From: Gammaproteobacteria bacterium
Lineage (GTDB): Bacteria > Pseudomonadota > Gammaproteobacteria > Eutrophobiales > Eutrophobiaceae
Length of the DNA stretch: 64,000 nt
Assembly: GCA_028279365.1 (NCBI GenBank)
Contig: JANQNX010000014.1
Coordinates: 143,921 to 207,920 of the forward strand
Direction: 5' to 3'
Shown here: in pieces, positions 10,933 to 38,645 of the stretch
How the letters are laid out: each line of letters opens with the position of its first letter
How positions within the stretch are numbered: position 1 is the stretch's first letter
The notes under the pieces: model-generated
Databases searched by the model: none
The model's input: only the letters and a program-made list of their open reading frames with translations
What the model was told of the DNA's origin: nothing
Position numbers and translations under genes: made by a program

Positions 10933-12876
10933 TCAGCTGGCTTTCTTCATTATCAATTTTGATGACGAATCAATATCAAACTGTTGTTTAATGTCCAGTT
11001 GCTCTGCCGTGACAGGTTTACTAAAAATATAACCTTGACCGTATTCACAACCATGATCAATCAGGAACTTTAAGGTATCTTTATCTTCAATGCCTTCAGC
11101 AATGACGACCATCTTGAAGTTTTTTGCCATGTTGATAATGGTCTGAACCATGACCAGCTTTCTTTCATGGGTGACATCCATGAATGAGCGATCAATTTTG
11201 ATCACGTCAAACGGCAGACCATGCAGGGTACTGAGAGAACTGTAACCGGTACCGAAATCATCGAGTAATAAGCGTACACCTATCTCGGATAATTGGTTTA
11301 ATACCTTAACTGATTTCGCATCTTCAGCATAAAAGACACTCTCGGTAATTTCGATATCGAGAGAATTGGGTTGTAATGAATACTTTGATAATAAATCACT
11401 AATAAAGGCGGGTAATTGTTCATTTTTTAATTGATTGGCAGAGACATTCACCGCTACATGGAAGTTATCATGGCCGACCTCGTTCCAGTGTTTACATTGT
11501 TGACATGCCTCTTCCAATACCCATTTACCCATTTCCTGAATCAAGCAGGTTGTTTCCGCGATCGGGATAAATTCTGCAGGTGGGACCATGCCTTTTTCGT
11601 AATGATGCCAGCGAAGCAGTGATTCAACGCCGATAATTTGCATGCTGGACAGGTCAATGATTGGTTGATAGTTGAGTAATAGCTCTTCTTTTTCAATGGC
11701 GTGCCAGATGTCTTTTTCCAACGTTAGTCGATGTGAAGATTTATGGTTGGACGCACATTCGGTGAAGGTTTTATACTGATTTTTACCATTGGCCTTGGCT
11801 TCATACATTGCCAGATCGGCACGCTTTAACAGGCTGGTAGTGTCCAGTCCATCTTTCGGGCAATGTACAATGCCAATACTGGCCGATATGTACATCTGAT
11901 TACAATCAATCTTGAAAGACTTACTCAAGCTTGCCAGTATTTTTTCAGAGACCTTATGCGCATGCATTATCGAATCGGGACCGGATAATAGTAGTAAGAA
12001 CTCATCACCGCCAAACCGAGCCAATGTGTCACTTTTTCTCAGACACTGTTGCATGCGCAGCGATGCTTCCTTGATGACGTTATCTCCCGCATCGTGTCCC
12101 AGGGTATCGTTAATCAATTTAAATCGATCAAGGTCAATGTATAACATTGAGAAAGACGTGTTATAGCGAATCGCATTACGAATTTGTTTATCCAGAATTT
12201 CAAGAAACAAATTACGATTGGGAATATTGGTTAATGTGTCATAGTAAGCCAGCTTATTATTTTCATCTTTCTTTTGATTCAGCAGGTTGATTGTTTCATA
12301 GAGGCGATCGGTGTTGAGATTGATGTGTCGAAAAACCACAATACTTACCATGATGATGAGTATGGAAAACGGCACCATTAACCAAAACACCAGCTGGATA
12401 GTATGGTGGCTAATGTTATCAATTTGAGCCACTAAATTTGTCAGGTTCATTTTGAATGTGCGCAGGGCATATTCAATGGTGTCGACCATGATAATGTCGC
12501 TGATGGCATATGATTCATCACTATCCAGATCCACCAGCAGCTCTTGCAGCATCTTTTCTTCTTTAATGCATGATTGCAGTGCTTGTTGCAGATCCTGATT
12601 AAGAATGATAATCGGATTCAAACTCTGCAGTTTTTCCTGACAAGACCTGGGGTGCTGTCCAAGTGTTTGCAGTTGTTCCCGAATATCAATTTTCATTAAC
12701 GGTGACTCAGGAAAGTTGTTTAACGTCTCTGATAATTCATGCACATGATTGAGAAACGCCAGGTTGTCATTATGGATACTAATGACGTTTGACAGTTGAA
12801 TGATGGAATACATGACCGAAGACACGAACAGCGCTGTGATTCCGAGTATGAGGTGTAATCGGGATGAGGTTTTCAT
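10933..12876 (-). CDS. Membrane-anchored GGDEF-EAL c-di-GMP turnover protein with periplasmic sensor region
   Basis: Two TM helices flank a roughly 130 aa loop. GGDEF motif RFGGDEF. EAL domain has an ESLLR variant of the EAL motif together with the DDFGTG, KIDRSF and IAEGIE motifs. Confidence 0.85.
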   Translation of the reverse strand: MKTSSRLHLILGITALFVSSVMYSIIQLSNVISIHNDNLAFLNHVHELSETLNNFPESPLMKIDIREQLQTLGQHPRSCQEKLQSLNPIIILNQDLQQALQSCIKEEKMLQELLVDLDSDESYAISDIIMVDTIEYALRTFKMNLTNLVAQIDNISHHTIQLVFWLMVPFSILIIMVSIVVFRHINLNTDRLYETINLLNQKKDENNKLAYYDTLTNIPNRNLFLEILDKQIRNAIRYNTSFSMLYIDLDRFKLINDTLGHDAGDNVIKEASLRMQQCLRKSDTLARFGGDEFLLLLSGPDSIMHAHKVSEKILASLSKSFKIDCNQMYISASIGIVHCPKDGLDTTSLLKRADLAMYEAKANGKNQYKTFTECASNHKSSHRLTLEKDIWHAIEKEELLLNYQPIIDLSSMQIIGVESLLRWHHYEKGMVPPAEFIPIAETTCLIQEMGKWVLEEACQQCKHWNEVGHDNFHVAVNVSANQLKNEQLPAFISDLLSKYSLQPNSLDIEITESVFYAEDAKSVKVLNQLSEIGVRLLLDDFGTGYSSLSTLHGLPFDVIKIDRSFMDVTHERKLVMVQTIINMAKNFKMVVIAEGIEDKDTLKFLIDHGCEYGQGYIFSKPVTAEQLDIKQQFDIDSSSKLIMKKAS

Positions 12877-31594: not shown

Positions 31595-32287
31595 ATGTCA
31601 GACAAGCCGCGCTATTGGGTAGTGATTCCTGCCGCAGGAATTGGTAAACGTGTTGGCGCTGATCAGCCCAAGCAATATATTACGATTCATTCGAAAACAA
31701 TTCTTGAACATACTATCGATTGTTTTATTGAACGTGCTGACATTACCGGTATCGTCGTCGCGATTGCGAAAGACGATCCTTATTGGCAAACATTGGCTAT
31801 TCATAATCATGAAAAAATTATCACAGCGCCAGGCGGTAAGGAACGGTTTCAATCTGTGACTAATTCGTTGCATGCTTTGCTTGATATGGCTGATCAAAAT
31901 GACTGGGTGATGGTGCATGATGCGGCGCGGCCATGTTTAAGCCAGGCTGCAATTGATCGATTAATAAAGGAATTAGCGCAGCATGATGTCGGAGGTATTT
32001 TGGCCATGCCTTGTCGGGACACGATGAAGCGTGCGGATAGTAATAATGACATAGTTGAAACAGTCGAACGCGAACAGCTATGGCATGCGCAAACACCGCA
32101 AATGTTTCGTTATCATTTTTTGTTGTCGGCGTTAAACGACGTTGTCGAACAAAGTAAGTTAGTAACCGATGAAGCCATGGCAATTGAACAACTGGGCTTA
32201 CAACCAAAATTGATTCAAGGCCATCATGAGAATCTAAAAATAACCCATAAAGATGATCTTCAGCATGCTGAAACGTACCTAGTATGA
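31595..32287 (+). CDS. ispD: 2-C-methyl-D-erythritol 4-phosphate cytidylyltransferase
   Basis: N-terminal VIPAAGIGKR motif; 230 aa. Confidence 0.85.
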   Translation: MSDKPRYWVVIPAAGIGKRVGADQPKQYITIHSKTILEHTIDCFIERADITGIVVAIAKDDPYWQTLAIHNHEKIITAPGGKERFQSVTNSLHALLDMADQNDWVMVHDAARPCLSQAAIDRLIKELAQHDVGGILAMPCRDTMKRADSNNDIVETVEREQLWHAQTPQMFRYHFLLSALNDVVEQSKLVTDEAMAIEQLGLQPKLIQGHHENLKITHKDDLQHAETYLV

Positions 32288-32775
32288 ATGAGATAAAAAA
32301 AATGCGAATCGGTCATGGTTATGACACACATCGATTAGTTGAGAACAGAAAATTAATTCTTGGTGGTGTCACCATTCCTTTTGAAAAAGGTTTGGAAGGT
32401 CATTCTGATGCAGATGCTGTGATCCATTGTTTGTGTGATGCTTTATTGGGCGCGATGGCAATGGGTGATATTGGCAAGTTTTTTCCCGATACCGATGCTG
32501 CATTCAAAAACATTAACAGTCGACTGTTACTTCAACAAGTTCATGATTTTATGAAAGAAAAAAATTATGTACTGGTTAATGCTGACATCACTATCTTGGC
32601 ACAAGCGCCAAAAATGGCAGCGCATATTCCTGCCATGATTAATAATCTTTGTGGCGATCTTCAGGTTGATCATTCTCAAATTAATATCAAAGCGACCACA
32701 ACTGAAAAGATGGGATTTATCGGAAACGGCGAAGGGATATCTTCCTACGCTGTCGTTTTACTTCACCATCAATAG
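32284..32775 (+). CDS. ispF: 2-C-methyl-D-erythritol 2,4-cyclodiphosphate synthase
   Basis: RIGHGYDTHRL and SDADxVxHxxxDALLGA motifs. ATGA overlap with ispD. Confidence 0.9.
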   Translation: MNEIKKMRIGHGYDTHRLVENRKLILGGVTIPFEKGLEGHSDADAVIHCLCDALLGAMAMGDIGKFFPDTDAAFKNINSRLLLQQVHDFMKEKNYVLVNADITILAQAPKMAAHIPAMINNLCGDLQVDHSQINIKATTTEKMGFIGNGEGISSYAVVLLHHQ

Positions 32776-32815
32776 TTAATCACCGACTTTCATTTCTTTT
32801 TTTTCTCTTATAGCG

Positions 32816-32850
32816 TTGACTAGTTATCTAACGATACGAGTCAAAGTCAA
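32816..32850. promoter_or_regulatory. Operator-like hexamer repeats upstream of rpfF-like gene
   Basis: TTGACT-N17-AGTCAA-AGTCAA: an inverted repeat plus a tandem copy of the same hexamer, about 77 nt upstream of the ATG at 32927. Confidence 0.25.
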
Positions 32851-32926
32851 TTTCTTTTAATTTTACTTTCGGATTCATCGTTAGCTCTGACGAATTATGC
32901 AGTAAACATTTTTCAGGAGCACTACC

Positions 32927-33832
32927 ATGAAGACATTAGATTTTTTAGCTAAAAAAGTAACCGATGATTTAAAACATATCGATTATCAGTTTGATGAATC
33001 AGAAGGGCTCATATGGGTTTATCTGGATGCCAGTCCAAGACCCTGTGTGACGCCTCAGCTTGTCAATGATATTCGTAATTTACATAGAACTATTGAAATC
33101 AATCACGGCAAGCTGCCGACAAAGAATGGATTGAAAACGGTGAAATACCATGTGCTTGATGCGCATGCAGACGGTGTTTTCAGTCTTGGCGGTGACCTTG
33201 CCTATTTTCTTCAGTGTTTAAAAACCAAAGATAGAATCGCGTTAAAGAATTATGCAAGAAGCTGTGTCAACGCCATTTATCCCATCATGGTCGATTTTGA
33301 ATTGCCTATTACTACAATTTCATTAGTCAGGGGTAATGCTCTTGGTGGCGGTTTTGAAATTGCCTTGTCGGGAGATGTTGTTATTGCTGAACGTTCTGCG
33401 CAAATGGGTTTTCCGGAAATACTCTTCAACACGTTTCCAGGTATGGGTGCATTTCAATCGTTAAGCTATCGCGTTGGGCTTAATCAGGCTAGCAAGATGA
33501 TAAAGAGTGCCAAGTTATATCAGGCCGAAGAACTCTATAACATGGGTATCGTTGACATTTTAGTCGATGACCACTCTGGTGAAGAAGCGGTTTATTCATT
33601 TATCCAGGATAACAACAAGCACTGGAATGGTAACAAGTCGATACAGTCTGTCTCCAATCGGCTTAAGCATTTTGAATATCGGGAAATTATGGATATTTGT
33701 TGTAACGACTGGGTGAATTCAGTCTTCAGTATGTCTGAAAGAGATATGCGAACGGTATCCCGGTTGTTGCGAAGTCAACAACGATATGTCTCAGACAATA
33801 AAGCCCAGGCATTGCGTCACGTCTCTGCTTAA
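32927..33832 (+). CDS. rpfF: DSF-family signal synthase (RpfF-like crotonase)
   Basis: Crotonase fold collinear with Xanthomonas RpfF (as I recall it): VFSLGGDLAYF, GNALGGGFEIALS, GFPEILFNTFPGMGA with both catalytic Glu retained, and a C-terminal ...RDMRTVSRLLRSQ tail. AGGAG RBS. Confidence 0.75.
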   Translation: MKTLDFLAKKVTDDLKHIDYQFDESEGLIWVYLDASPRPCVTPQLVNDIRNLHRTIEINHGKLPTKNGLKTVKYHVLDAHADGVFSLGGDLAYFLQCLKTKDRIALKNYARSCVNAIYPIMVDFELPITTISLVRGNALGGGFEIALSGDVVIAERSAQMGFPEILFNTFPGMGAFQSLSYRVGLNQASKMIKSAKLYQAEELYNMGIVDILVDDHSGEEAVYSFIQDNNKHWNGNKSIQSVSNRLKHFEYREIMDICCNDWVNSVFSMSERDMRTVSRLLRSQQRYVSDNKAQALRHVSA

Positions 33833-33871
33833 AAAAAACATTCATAATTTTCAAATTCAAAGGAGTAAAAA

Positions 33872-34984
33872 ATGAATACTATTGGTACGAAAAGTTTAAG
33901 GCCTTCAATATCAGAGTTTGTAAACCCATCTAACAAGACAGCTCTTGTTATATTTTTAATAGATATGACAATCTATGTCAGTGCAGTGGCCGGGATCATA
34001 TTTTTTGAAAGCCTTGTGTTAAAGGCATTATGTAGTATTTTATGTGGACTAAAAATGGCCTCGCTATTTGTTATTGCACATGATGCAGCACATGACAATT
34101 ACACAAAAAGTAAATGGCTAAATAAAGTGATTGCTCGATTGGCATTCTTACCGTGTTACCACAATTATAGTTTGTGGTTGATTGTTCACAACCGTTTGCA
34201 CCATCAGCTGACAAATATAAAGGGGGTCAATTCCTGGTCGCCGCTATCAAAACAAGATTTTGATAATTTGCCAAAATACCGCCAGTTATTGGAAAAGTTT
34301 TACAGAAGTCCATTTGGTATTAGTTTTAATTATATGATTGAGCGTTGGTTAAAGGATAAATTTTTTCCTTTTGTCAGACTGACAAAAGGAAAAAATGGAG
34401 CACACTGGCTGGATTTCACTATGGTTTCAGGTTTTCTTTTTTCACAGATCATGTTTTTCACATACTTGGGCTTTGTCTCTCCGGAAATAGGTGTGTTCGG
34501 TTCTTTATTGTTGGGAGTCGTTGCTCCATTTATGGTTTTTTGTTACATGGTTGGTTTCTCGGTGTATCAGCAGCATACGCATGAAATGGTACCGTGGTTT
34601 ACCACGCTGGAGGAGAGGGATGCATGTTGTGATGTAGAGGATTTAACAATACATGTTAAATACCCAAAGTGGTATAACTTGATCAGTCATAATGTGATGG
34701 AACACACTGCACATCATGTTGATCCCAGAATTCCGTCCTATGAGTTATCAAAAGCGCAGTCTGTATTACTGAAAGTTCTGGGCGATGATATCTTATCGAT
34801 TAATTTTTCGTTTTCCGATTTCATAAAAACCATGCAGCTATGTAAGTTATATGATTATGACACGCATTGCTGGCTTGATTTTGATGGCAATGTTACGAAC
34901 CCAACAGTACTAGCTTTTATAAAAGATAAGGATCATTCTGTCAATGGTTCGAGGACAGTTGATGAGTTTCCTAATGCGGCATAA
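33872..34984 (+). CDS. Membrane fatty-acid desaturase (three His-box family)
   Basis: His boxes HDAAHD, HNRLHH and HTAHH plus TM segments. AAAGGAG RBS. It lies 39 nt after the rpfF-like gene, so the two are likely co-transcribed. Confidence 0.8.
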   Translation: MNTIGTKSLRPSISEFVNPSNKTALVIFLIDMTIYVSAVAGIIFFESLVLKALCSILCGLKMASLFVIAHDAAHDNYTKSKWLNKVIARLAFLPCYHNYSLWLIVHNRLHHQLTNIKGVNSWSPLSKQDFDNLPKYRQLLEKFYRSPFGISFNYMIERWLKDKFFPFVRLTKGKNGAHWLDFTMVSGFLFSQIMFFTYLGFVSPEIGVFGSLLLGVVAPFMVFCYMVGFSVYQQHTHEMVPWFTTLEERDACCDVEDLTIHVKYPKWYNLISHNVMEHTAHHVDPRIPSYELSKAQSVLLKVLGDDILSINFSFSDFIKTMQLCKLYDYDTHCWLDFDGNVTNPTVLAFIKDKDHSVNGSRTVDEFPNAA

Positions 34985-35009
34985 TTAAATCGCGATAACC
35001 CCTAAAGAA

Positions 35010-35031
35010 AACCAGACAGGGAAGTCTGGTT
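35010..35031. terminator. Bidirectional terminator hairpin between convergent desaturase and sensor-kinase genes
   Basis: AACCAGAC-AGGGAA-GTCTGGTT, a perfect 8 bp stem, in the 49 nt convergent gap. Confidence 0.5.
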
Positions 35032-35033
35032 AT

Positions 35034-37547
35034 TTAGTTAGATAAGTTTGATTTACGTTGTTCCACATAGGAATAAAGCGCTGTTTTACTTTCTTTAAAC
35101 ACTTCTTTGAGTTCTATCAAAAGCGATGATAAATCATCATGGTTTTTCGATCTGGAAGCTTTGTAAATATTATCGGCAGATTTCGATAAGCGGGTAGCGC
35201 CAATTGAACGTGAACTGCCGTCCAATGTATGAGCATGTTCGTCTATATTATTGTAACTATTCTGGCTAACGGCATTATCGAGTTTTGTTATTGTTTCTTC
35301 TGCATCTTTGCAGAAATTACTGACAAGGTCAGCGACAAAGTTTTTTGTTTTAGACATTTGATTGAGCGAATCGAGTAAATCAGAGTCTATGATCGGCAAA
35401 TTTTTAGGATCGTTGATACTGACAATATTATGAGGAGAACTATTATCAGAGATGATATGCATATTTTTATCTCTATAAAGATCAGTAACTGTGTTTAATA
35501 GTCTTTCCGGTTCAATAGGTTTAGTGAGAAAGGCATCCAGTCTTGCTTCTTTACATGCCTCATAGGCTTCTTTCGTTGCGTTGGCCGTCAACATGATTAT
35601 TGGAATATGCCTGTTCTCCGGATACATGAAACGATACATCTTGGCGGCTTCAATGCCGTTCATAATCGGCATATGCATATCAAGTATGATGAGATCGTAT
35701 TCCTTCTGTTCCAGATAATCTAGAATAATTTCGCCATTTTCAACGATAGTCACCTGATGATTGCCGTGTTCGAGTATATTGCGAATTACCTTTTGATTGG
35801 TTTCATTATCCTCACCGACAAGTATGCTTAGGCTTTTACGGGCATAATCTGTGTTAAGTTCTGGTTCTCTCAATATGTTTCTTCCTGAATTGTCTGCATA
35901 GTCATTGGCAGCAACAAGAGCATGTAACGACCTGAATAATGATGTTCTTTCGGGCTTACTACTTATTATGGAGGCATAGCCAGCCGCCAGCTGATTACTG
36001 ATTTCACTATTATTATCAGTACAATCCGAGACCAATATTGCATGTGTATTCTTACTTATTGATTTAATTTCGTTGATTAACAGGAACGGGGAGGTATCCA
36101 GCTGCCGTTGAAAAACTAATGCAATCTGATAGCGACGATTTTCCATCATTTCTAACGCGCTGTGTGCATCGGTTGCCAGGTCAAAATCGATCATCCAGTT
36201 TTTAAGCTGTTCTGAAATATAATGATTTTGCTCAGTATTTGATGTAATCAATATGATGTTTGATTTATTAAGCTGTTCTAGCGAATGCTTTTCCTCAGAC
36301 AATACCTTTTGTCTTTGCAACATCAATTCAAACCAAAATGCGGAACCTTTATTTAATTTGCTGCTAAAGTCGATCACGCCACCCATTGCCTCAACTAGCT
36401 GTTTGGCTATTGCCATGCCAAGGCCTGTGCCGCCAAACTTCCTGGTTGTCGATTCATCGGCCTGGGTGAATTTTTCAAAAAGTTTGGCTTTTGATTCTTT
36501 CGGAATGCCAATTCCCGTATCAACAATTTTGAACCTCAGTTTAACGTCTGTATCCATGATCAAAATCGGTTCTACGTATATCTGGATTGAACCTTGTTCA
36601 GTGAACTTAATCGCATTGCTAATTAAATTAATAATAATTTGACGTAAATGTTGTTCATCTCCACGTAATAGAAAAGGGATTTCCGGTGATATGTGTATGT
36701 TAAGTACTAGTCCTTTATGTTCTGCTTGCGGCGCGAGCATATGTGAAGTTGAGTTAACCAATGAATGCAAGTCAAAGTCTACTTCTTTAATTGTCGTTTT
36801 GCCGGCCTCGATTTTTGATATATCCAGGATGTCATTAATCAGTGCCAGCAAAGTTTTTGCAGACGCTTTTATTGTTGACGCATAGTCCTTTTGTTGAATG
36901 TCAAGATCAGTTTTGTCAAGCAAGCCACTCATACCAATTACGCCATTCAGCGGTGTACGTATTTCATGACTCATATTTGCCAGAAATTGACTTTTTGCTT
37001 CATTTGCCGCCTCGGCAGAATTAATGGCTTTTCGTAACTGTGATATCAGTGTGGATACGTATACGGTCAAAATTATGATAGTGACTAAAAAACCATAGCT
37101 AAGAAATTTCTGTTCATGCCAGTATTCAACGTTGGTTAACACAAAACAAAAGCCAATAATGCTTAACAACATGCACGAGAACAAGTATTTATTACCGTAA
37201 CGAAAACCATATCCAAATGTGATGAATAGATAAGAGCCGATTAAGGGTGCACCATAACTACCTAAATGATACAAGGCATATGAAATGAGAACCGCATCGG
37301 AAATCATACCTATGTACCTCCTGTATGGAAGAGGTTTAGGGTTAAGAACCACCCAACAAAAAATTGCAATGCAAATTAAGAGATATTGAATTGGCGCTAT
37401 AACGGCTTGCGGAGGAAGTAATCTATATTCATATTCAATCCATAAAATATAAAAAAGCCAGATTGTTCCCATTATTAGTTTGACGAAGCACTGTATATGT
37501 TCAGAGTCCTCTCTGTTCTCCAGCCGACTTTTGATTATGTTAAACAT
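35034..37547 (-). CDS. rpfC: RpfC-like hybrid sensor histidine kinase (5TM-HisKA-HATPase-REC-HPt)
   Basis: N-terminal 5-TM sensor. H-box [10 protein letters not shown]. HATPase G-boxes. An intermediate receiver-like segment. A receiver domain ([14 protein letters not shown]). C-terminal HPt ([13 protein letters not shown]). The gene is markedly AT-rich. Confidence 0.85.
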
Positions 37548-37580
37548 TAGTACAACCTATGTTAAGTAACGCTATCGAGT

Positions 37581-38645
37581 CTATCGATTGTTATCTTGAA
37601 TATTAACTATATCAAGCAATGCATCGACACAAGCAGGATCGAAATGTTTACCTTTTTCAGAGATGAGGTATTCCTTGGCATGCTCAATTGGCCATGCTTT
37701 TTTATAAGGACGTTGATTGGTTAACGAATCAAATACATCAGCAACCGCAGTTATTCTTGCTTCAATCGGAATCTCGGATTCGCCTATCGCGTTGGGATAG
37801 CCTTTGCCGTTGTATTTTTCGTGATGATTAAGCGCGATGATTGCACCTGTTTGTAAATAAGGAGAGGGACTGTCTTTCAATAATTCATAGCCAATCTCTG
37901 TATGCGATTTCATTATAGTAAATTCTTCGCCAGTTAATTTACCTTGTTTCATCAGGATGTTATCTGCAATTGCAATCTTGCCTACATCATGCAGTGGAGA
38001 AGCCAGCTTGATTATTTCCGCCCGTTCTGCATCGATCCCCATCTTTATTGAGATTTGATGTGCAAATGAGGCGATACGTTTGAGGTGTTCCCCGGTAATG
38101 CAGTCTTTAAACTCGCAGGCACGGGTCAATCGATTCAGCGTTTCCTGTTCTCTCAGTAATAGTTCATCTGAATTGCGGTTGACTAAAAACTGAAGTACGT
38201 CTGTTTTATGTTCCAGACGCGATTGATGTTTGGACAAGGCCAGCAAATTTTTACATCGGGCTTTACATTCAGCTTGATCAAAGGGTTTATTGAGGAAATC
38301 ATTTACGCCAGATTCAAGTGCATTATGTAACGTCGATTTATCATCCATGATAGTGATCATGATAACGGGCACGTTTTTACAGCCCGGCACATGTCTTACC
38401 GACTGTGTGAATTCAATACCATTCATCTCCGGCATTTTAAAATCGGTAATAATGAGATCAGGGGGGCTGAGTCTGGCATCGGTTAATGCCGCCAAAGGGT
38501 GTTTGAACGCCCGGATCTGTATATCAGAATCAATGTTTCTGACAATCTCGGTCAGGATATTCAGGCTGACCGACTGATCGTCAACTATCATGACAGTTGA
38601 AGCCGAGTAATTTGCCGATATATCGTCGATAGAAATGGGTAGCAT
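37581..38645 (-). CDS. rpfG: RpfG-like response regulator with HD-GYP phosphodiesterase domain
   Basis: REC domain (VMIVDDQ...ITDFKMPEMNG) fused to HD-GYP (HLKRIASFAH, HDVGK, HHEKYNGKGYP). The GYP box has Asn in place of the usual Asp. Confidence 0.8.
   Translation of the reverse strand: MLPISIDDISANYSASTVMIVDDQSVSLNILTEIVRNIDSDIQIRAFKHPLAALTDARLSPPDLIITDFKMPEMNGIEFTQSVRHVPGCKNVPVIMITIMDDKSTLHNALESGVNDFLNKPFDQAECKARCKNLLALSKHQSRLEHKTDVLQFLVNRNSDELLLREQETLNRLTRACEFKDCITGEHLKRIASFAHQISIKMGIDAERAEIIKLASPLHDVGKIAIADNILMKQGKLTGEEFTIMKSHTEIGYELLKDSPSPYLQTGAIIALNHHEKYNGKGYPNAIGESEIPIEARITAVADVFDSLTNQRPYKKAWPIEHAKEYLISEKGKHFDPACVDALLDIVNIQDNNR

Follow-up and report, generated by a model that had tools for sequence, protein, structure and literature searches.

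We analysed 64,000 nucleotides of DNA from an uncultured gammaproteobacterium (contig JANQNX010000014.1, positions 143,921 to 207,920; this whole stretch is referred to below as the window and is numbered from its first letter), and examined a gene for a membrane desaturase that lies directly downstream of a predicted synthase gene for a diffusible signal factor (DSF). The cluster is predicted to be a complete RpfF/RpfC/RpfG system, with the desaturase gene inserted between the synthase and sensor genes. The desaturase subclade represented in the window is specifically and consistently tied to the RpfF/RpfC pair, and this conserved arrangement suggests a chemically modified fatty-acid signal. 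The locus is composed as follows:

32927..33832, plus strand: RpfF-type DSF synthase of the crotonase family, 301 aa (Pfam, NCBIfam, PDB matches, catalytic Glu)
33833..33871, plus strand: intergenic spacer of 39 nt, crotonase to desaturase (direct sequence reading)
33872..34984, plus strand: PF00487 membrane di-iron fatty-acid desaturase family protein, 370 aa, ATG start (Pfam, His boxes, AlphaFold2 model, linkage)
35010..35031, no single strand: terminator-like hairpin, bidirectional, separating the stops of the convergent desaturase and sensor genes (8-bp stem, 4 GC pairs, T-rich tails on both strands)
35034..37547, minus strand: RpfC-type hybrid sensor kinase, 837 aa (multi-transmembrane input, HisKA, HATPase_c, REC and HPt by Pfam)
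37581..38645, minus strand: RpfG-type response regulator with REC and HD-GYP domains, 354 aa (Pfam Response_reg and HD_5/HD)

The desaturase gene and its partners

A sequence-only reading of this DNA had proposed that positions 33872-34984 encode a desaturase with three intact His boxes, and the sequence, the PF00487 match and the invariance of the histidines all bear this out. The protein matches Pfam PF00487 (FA_desaturase) over residues 51-309 (E 1.2e-24, 87.9 bits, cut-off 29.7) and carries the boxes HDAAHD (residues 70-75, nt 34079-34096), HNRLHH (residues 106-111, nt 34187-34204) and HTAHH (residues 278-282, nt 34703-34717). In an alignment of 22 family sequences, whose members are 39-63% identical to the window protein, H70, H74, H106, H110, H111, H278, H281 and H282 are invariant, and the protein aligns with its homologues over its full length (coverage 92-100%, E down to 1e-151). 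AlphaFold2, run on this alignment, gave a confident model (mean predicted local distance difference test score 86.4) with four long membrane helices (residues 21-44, 48-73, 177-202 and 207-235), a predicted four-helix desaturase/AlkB-type fold of the kind that defines the superfamily. Among PDB entries, Foldseek matched the model to the FAD-like (FADL) subunit of the Chlamydomonas Ycf2-FtsHi motor (8xks_K, TM score 0.75) and to the alkane hydroxylase AlkB (8sbb, TM score 0.44), and PDB structure and sequence searches place the protein at the superfamily level only (FADL, AlkB). The desaturase is under purifying selection, with a ratio of nonsynonymous to synonymous substitution rates of 0.09-0.13 among four close relatives, similar to that of RpfC, and the earlier judgement that the enzyme is probably active is a reasonable one from its sequence.

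Two narrower identities were tried for the desaturase and rejected. For the Delta12/omega-6 acyl-lipid label that JGI automatic annotation gives to homologues, no Delta12 model appears among the NCBIfam hits. An UndB-type decarboxylase identity found no homology to Pme-UndB (BLASTP E 0.56, hhalign E 0.17), the query having been taken from the supplement of PMC12746148 with minor optical-character-recognition noise in its sequence. The desaturase open reading frame (ORF) also contains a perfect 18+1+18 nt palindrome at window positions 34360-34396, ATTTTTTCCTTTTGTCAG-A-CTGACAAAAGGAAAAAAT, which encodes KFFPFVRLTKGKN and as an RNA hairpin has a folding energy of -21.3 kcal/mol (z = -4.3). It is present in a single copy in the window, is not found at the equivalent place in four orthologous loci, and could represent either a structure internal to the mRNA or, on the minus strand, an element resembling a terminator.

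The crotonase ORF stops at 33832 and the desaturase ATG follows 39 nt further on, with a ribosome-binding site, AGGAG, at 33861-33865, 6 nt 5' of the ATG. A consensus scan of the gap detected neither a terminator-like hairpin nor a promoter-like site, and a promoter scan detected no sigma-70-like site 5' of the crotonase gene or in the gap. The short gap and ribosome-binding site pointed out earlier are thus present as described, with no terminator between the genes, and crotonase and desaturase are probably co-transcribed. Upstream, the ispF-crotonase intergenic region holds an imperfect inverted repeat, TTGACTAG...CGAGTCAA, flanking TAACGAT at window positions 32816-32844. Relatives carry a near-palindrome, ATCGTTAAACGAT, at the aligned place 5' of crotonase (L002, L081, L087 and L088 aligned; L numbers designate loci of our comparative set), the ACGAT within the repeat is conserved in 6/7 sequences, and the repeat may be an operator for the cassette.

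The upstream gene product is predicted to be a DSF-synthase-type enzyme, and the system a bona fide DSF system. It matches Pfam ECH_1/ECH_2, and its best PDB matches are the RpfF-type structures 3m6m, 6dgn, 5fus and 7zq7 (E 5e-44 to 4e-42), with the crotonases that rank after these reaching E 8e-15 at best. E144 (in GGGFE) and E164 (in FPE) align with the catalytic E141 and E161 of RpfF from Xanthomonas campestris pv. campestris (Xcc; 3m6m), identity is ~36% to Xcc RpfF and 32% to 6dgn, and homologues carry the name 'DSF synthase' at NCBI and JGI. The protein exceeds the cut-off of NCBIfam PRK08788 (303 bits against 177) and falls below that of the RpfF equivalog NF053515 (183.9 bits against 550). 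The chain 6dgn, deposited as RpfF, gives the same pattern (399 bits for PRK08788, 185 bits for NF053515), passing the one model and missing the other, so PRK08788 is a DSF-synthase family in its own right. The neighbour had been called RpfF from the outset: RpfF matches in the PDB, both catalytic Glu and PRK08788 confirm its type, and the name holds for the DSF-synthase family PRK08788 and not for the Xanthomonas equivalog (184 vs 550 bits).

The crotonase is also paired with genes for a DSF receptor, since the RpfC-type and RpfG-type genes lie convergent to it. In the translated sensor, hydrophobic segments span residues ~21-170, and residues 12-19, directly before the first transmembrane segment, read REDSEHIQ (R12, D14, S15, E16, Q19). 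The corresponding Xcc RpfC sequence is R15-A-D17-S18-E19-H-A-Q22, in which mutagenesis found R15, D17, S18, E19 and Q22 to be essential for DSF sensing (PMC5391125), and all five residues are kept in the window sensor (R-x-D-S-E-H-x-Q). The RpfG-type protein carries the motifs LHDVGK and HHEKYNGKGYP.

Linkage and cassette types in relatives

To place the arrangement among related genes, we compiled a census of 165 loci with desaturase relatives, drawn from species-representative genomes, metagenomes and contigs looked up by exact protein, and scored their flanks by tblastn. Grouped by identity to the window desaturase, the loci compare as follows:

At least 45.7% identical, with a readable flank, 21 loci: crotonase adjacent in 21/21; RpfC-type gene in all but two (short downstream flank)
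38-45% identical, 27 loci: crotonase in 0/27; DUF4442 hotdog gene directly upstream in 17
Below 38% identical, 115 loci, mostly Polynucleobacter and other Betaproteobacteria: crotonase in 0/115; DUF4442 hotdog and RpfC absent

Crotonase thus accompanies none of the 142 more distant desaturase loci. Once duplicates are merged the top identity band comprises ~18 distinct loci, of which 15 are gammaproteobacterial contigs with the order ispF-crot-desat-<rpfC(-<rpfG)-<smr. The window cluster is flanked by pyrG-kdsA-eno-ftsB-ispD-ispF on one side and by smr-purL on the other, and the gammaproteobacterial loci include Tara Oceans scaffolds with which the whole pyrG-to-purL synteny is shared; contigs with the cluster come from Tara Oceans, sediment and groundwater samples. 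Three closely related contigs of Kiloniellales/Rhodospirillales metagenome-assembled genomes have another context and gene order, namely glucokinase, DUF4442, desaturase, a gap of ~0.6-0.8 kb, crotonase, a convergent RpfC-type gene and a REC-PAS-kinase. Loci of the 38-45% band frequently carry, after the desaturase, a convergent Crp/Fnr-type regulator together with an acyl-CoA ligase of ~650 aa.

Several loci of the census show further features. In alphaproteobacterial relatives (L006, L008, L010, L012, L014, L016, L018, L085 and L092-L105), the gene found 20-190 nt upstream of the desaturase encodes a DUF4442 hotdog-fold protein, and in L085 this DUF4442/desaturase pair has another desaturase, a REC-guanylate cyclase and a GAF kinase as neighbours. 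A 2.7-kb contig binned as Thermodesulfobacteriota (L003, BQJP01000161.1) carries a crotonase-desaturase-RpfC set whose proteins are 46-65% identical to their gammaproteobacterial counterparts, and is probably mis-binned rather than evidence of a third phylum.

In a reverse test, we examined the contigs of seven crotonase homologues that are 41-48% identical to the window crotonase. The slot between ispF and smr holds a crotonase in all of them (7/7) and a desaturase in one (L167), with none in L166, L168, L169, L170, L171 and L172. These desaturase-less contigs contain rpfF-rpfC(-rpfG), and only 8-113 nt separate the crotonase stop from the RpfC stop. Since six related gammaproteobacterial contigs have no desaturase in the same slot, the desaturase is an accessory of an older RpfF/RpfC(/RpfG) island. 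The rpfG gene, for its part, is gone from the cluster in L004, L005, L007, L168 and L169, which keep crotonase and RpfC (and the desaturase where present); the downstream regulator, missing in several relatives, is therefore no fixed part of the cassette.

We then compared neighbour-joining trees (300 bootstrap replicates) for their support of a split between loci with and without the desaturase:

RpfC, 784 columns: 100% bootstrap
Crotonase, 270 columns: 88% bootstrap
RpfG, 323 columns: 24% bootstrap
Concatenate of kdsA, eno, ispD and ispF, the immediately adjacent flank, 1057 columns: 0% bootstrap

In the housekeeping tree, the desaturase-less L168 groups as sister of L004 and L005, both of which have a desaturase (99% support). 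All three of these loci are without rpfG, so the state of rpfG tracks the host, which the type of crotonase and rpfC does not. Together, the synthase, the desaturase and the sensor act like a single exchangeable type of cassette, and a second, desaturase-less cassette type occupies the same site in interleaved hosts. Cassettes with the desaturase are those of the window, L001-L011, L024, L081-L088 and L167, and cassettes lacking it those of L166 and L168-L172; the cassette trees are incongruent with the flanking genes.

The desaturase-linked crotonases themselves form two groups with a mutual identity of only ~40%, one comprising the window, L001, L002, L081 and L086-L088, and the other L004, L005, L007, L009, L011, L024, L083 and L167. 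The desaturases of both groups are roughly equidistant (~50-55%), with no such split, and the crotonase grouping disagrees with the ispF and housekeeping trees, which suggests synthase replacement or accelerated evolution inside the cassette.

The two cassette types also differ in the sensor motif. Sensors that accompany a desaturase retain the canonical motif, mostly as REDSEH.Q, in L004 as RDDTQHEQ and, in two further sensors, as REDTEFEQ and REDSEFEQ. In desaturase-less sensors the motif is degenerate (RPDTEHEQ, RGNTEFEQ, NDKTEREQ, RSDSDLEQ, HKYTELEQ, SADSENEQ). A second RpfC-like hybrid kinase lies past rpfG in L002 (13098-15596, minus strand) and L009 (13091-15160, minus strand), and that of L002 has the variant sensor motif RPDSELEQ.

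As for the wider surroundings, the four-gene island has a G+C content of 0.38-0.39 (window positions 32000-38000), against 0.45-0.47 in the flanking housekeeping genes, and is nonetheless ancient in this lineage. A search with Rfam identified no RNA gene in the window. A GGDEF-EAL protein of 647 aa is encoded ~20 kb from the cluster (window positions 10933-12876, minus strand); it is a further predicted enzyme of cyclic di-GMP turnover and could intersect with the output of RpfG.

Possible roles of the desaturase

Conserved linkage of the desaturase and its co-segregation with distinct synthase and sensor types are what a signal-tailoring enzyme predicts. We give roughly even chances to the proposal that the desaturase joins synthase and receptor as the third member of a DSF-type cassette and tailors the signal. 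By homology to RpfF and BCAM0581, the crotonase would dehydrate a 3-hydroxyacyl chain held on acyl carrier protein (ACP), hydrolyse the thioester and free a cis-2-enoic acid, both homologues being bifunctional dehydratase/thioesterases that act on 3-hydroxyacyl-ACP (PMC4504480). The desaturase would then use O2 to alter the acyl tail of the cis-2 acid or of its immediate precursor, most likely by introducing a second double bond, with hydroxylation as the other option. Enzymes of its superfamily are membrane-bound, contain a di-iron centre and need O2 and reductant (PMC12746148), and since members such as UndB use free fatty acids, a free DSF-type acid is a chemically plausible substrate. The modified acid would be sensed by RpfC, which would phosphorylate RpfG, and RpfG would in turn hydrolyse cyclic di-GMP and lower its level. 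Because the sensor retains the full DSF-contact motif, we expect the signal to keep its carboxyl/cis-2 head and to differ further down the chain; the remainder of the input domain differs between sensors of the desaturase-bearing type and those of the desaturase-less sister systems. The earlier proposal of a modified signal therefore gains from the conserved linkage and from the co-segregation with synthase and sensor types, and its second double bond is a suggestion that the sequence does not fix.

A number of observations weigh against signal tailoring. The substrate, the position of a double bond and even desaturation as the type of reaction are not readable from sequence. The desaturase reaches no curated NCBIfam desaturase equivalog: its top matches are Bacillus cereus DesA (Delta5), the best at 47 bits, and DesB (Delta10) at 40 bits, scores so far under the cut-offs of 500 bits that their regiospecificity is not transferable to it. 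Acting on a cis-2 acid, a Delta5 desaturase would produce a 2,5-diene like CDSF (cis,cis-11-methyldodeca-2,5-dienoic acid), and we treat this product, drawn from the DesA match of 47 against 500 bits, as a lead and not as evidence. The sister systems do without a desaturase, and the known diversity of DSF signals, CDSF included, arises without tailoring enzymes (PMC4504480). As the gammaproteobacterial loci are syntenic, the linkage has few independent origins, probably one or two, and the desaturase's closest unlinked relatives resemble ordinary stand-alone genes (Polynucleobacter) or lie in what look like lipid-metabolism contexts. Only Q112, L214, N269 and R286 separate the gammaproteobacterial crotonase-linked desaturases from unlinked clades, and alphaproteobacterial crotonase-linked desaturases have the unlinked-type residue at all four positions; none of the four lies in a His box, and we rejected them as specificity determinants. 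The ratio of between-type to within-type identity in RpfC is 0.78 for the sensor/transmembrane region, 0.90 for the dimerisation/phosphotransfer and catalytic domains (DHp+CA) and 0.92 for REC, which suggests that type specificity is only modestly greater in the input domain than in the kinase core. Finally, co-segregation is also expected from plain linkage in a recombining block, and so cannot alone decide between the possible roles.

Co-transcription with a synthase gene, moreover, does not by itself imply biosynthesis, since the rpfF-linked rpfB of Xanthomonas mobilises free fatty acids (PMC4504480). It is possible, if on the unlikely side, that the protein is an ordinary acyl-lipid or acyl-coenzyme A (CoA) membrane desaturase, co-regulated with the DSF system and adjusting membrane unsaturation, for example by offsetting the drain that the RpfF thioesterase places on acyl-ACPs, like the role proposed for Xanthomonas RpfB, the signal then being a canonical cis-2 mono-unsaturated acid. 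Such a role agrees with the contexts of unlinked relatives, those below 38% identity standing alone in 115 loci of Polynucleobacter and other Betaproteobacteria and those at 38-45% sitting with a hotdog protein, a Crp/Fnr regulator and a long-chain acyl-CoA ligase, as well as with the label of acyl-lipid desaturase that JGI pipelines give to the family. The existence of desaturase-less sister cassettes and the presence of only four clade-specific residues, none in the His boxes, favour it too, and the RpfF thioesterase perturbs lipid pools, with rpfF mutants altering membranes (PMC4504480, PMC8659556). However, a lipid desaturase has no obvious reason to be strictly retained between synthase and sensor down to ~50% identity, to recur in the rearranged alphaproteobacterial locus or to co-vary with sensor and synthase type independently of host phylogeny, and no curated lipid-desaturase equivalog is matched.

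A role in turnover or resetting of the signal, in which the desaturase would oxidise a DSF-type acid to an inactive or differently active form and be made together with the synthase, seems improbable to us. RpfB offers a precedent, an enzyme that removes signal or mobilises fatty acids and whose gene most xanthomonads have in linkage with rpfF. Across metagenomes, the abundance of rpfF correlates with that of rpfB, and no AMP-binding gene for an RpfB-type ligase was detected in the cluster or among the large window ORFs scanned. The canonical DSF-contact motif of the sensor would likewise fit an unmodified active signal. Yet no di-iron desaturase is known as a quorum-quenching enzyme, the known turnover of DSF proceeding by CoA activation and beta-oxidation-type enzymes, and turnover leaves unexplained why cassettes that have the desaturase and cassettes that lack it carry different types of sensor and synthase.

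We consider it very improbable that a single insertion between rpfF and rpfC made the gene a passenger, carried by linkage with a function unrelated to signalling, for although the syntenic gammaproteobacterial loci may share a single ancestral event and linkage alone would produce the co-segregation in the trees, the desaturase is under purifying selection, is tightly spaced in the operon, is kept where rpfG is lost (L004, L005 and L007) and is kept with crotonase and rpfC in an alphaproteobacterial locus of other order and context.

Taking signal tailoring further, we put forward a speculative picture, itself rather doubtful, in which the slot between ispF and smr of uncultured Gammaproteobacteria, many of them marine, would hold interchangeable DSF 'dialect' cassettes. 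One type would be desaturase-tailored and would provide a private channel to its matched RpfC, with a signal identity that depends on oxygen, and the alphaproteobacterial DUF4442-hotdog/desaturase pairs, some of which lie by other signalling genes, would represent a second, RpfF-independent route to free unsaturated fatty-acid signals.

If signal tailoring is correct, the conserved cluster would give genetic evidence, the first of its kind, that an enzyme tailors a DSF-type signal. It would also be the first evidence that fatty-acid quorum sensing has specificity types like the pherotypes of peptide systems, and would bring abundant uncultured bacteria into the range of DSF signalling. Sister cassettes that have or lack the desaturase occupy one slot and provide a built-in control and an experimental handle. 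Should the protein instead be a lipid desaturase, the locus would still document membrane remodelling hard-wired to a quorum-sensing operon.

Comparison with known systems

Among the closest known systems is the rpf cluster of X. campestris (rpfB-rpfF / rpfC-rpfH-rpfG), the paradigm of DSF quorum sensing, where a crotonase synthase likewise lies by a multi-transmembrane HisKA-HATPase-REC-HPt kinase and a REC-HD-GYP regulator. The window system shares with it the R-x-D-S-E-H-x-Q sensor N-terminus and the catalytic Glu pair of the synthase. Unlike the Xcc cluster, it is without rpfB and rpfH, has a PF00487 desaturase in the position after the synthase, and belongs to an uncultured gammaproteobacterium with relatives from marine and sediment samples, and not to a xanthomonad. 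The synthase also falls in the same NCBIfam family, PRK08788, as the crotonases 6dgn (deposited as RpfF) and 5fus (deposited as a 'putative enoyl-CoA hydratase'), which we take to be of the Burkholderia/Cronobacter type that synthesises the Burkholderia diffusible signal factor (BDSF). The Burkholderia synthase is paired with a cytoplasmic receptor, RpfR, and not with RpfC/RpfG, and we know of no desaturase linked to it. To our knowledge, all known DSF-family signals vary through what fatty-acid synthesis feeds to RpfF, with no tailoring enzyme known.

CDSF, found in Xanthomonas oryzae and Burkholderia, has a second double bond and is therefore the kind of product that had been predicted for this locus, with the dienoic DSF of Xanthomonas named as precedent. 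That precedent does not hold: CDSF production relies on RpfF alone, the composition of the signal mix being set by substrate supply with no dedicated desaturase known to take part (PMC4504480), and so it provides no precedent for the present gene arrangement. UndB belongs to the same superfamily as the window desaturase (four transmembrane helices, di-iron, His boxes, O2-dependent) and converts free fatty acids to 1-alkenes by oxidative decarboxylation, binding its substrate via an Arg/Glu/Tyr network (PMC12746148). The sequence relationship of the two proteins is detectable no further than the third His box. A full-text literature search, with subscription-only papers outside its scope, returned no account of a DSF cluster that contains a desaturase gene and none of cassette types or polymorphism in DSF systems.

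In pherotype cassettes such as staphylococcal agr and Bacillus comQXP, genes for synthesis, modification and reception of a signal co-diversify at a fixed site, incongruently with the flanking genome. The signals of agr and comQXP are peptides, unlike that of a DSF system, and the likeness drawn here is one of gene trees: as in a pherotype cassette, the crotonase, desaturase and rpfC genes sort together against kdsA-eno-ispD-ispF and rpfG.

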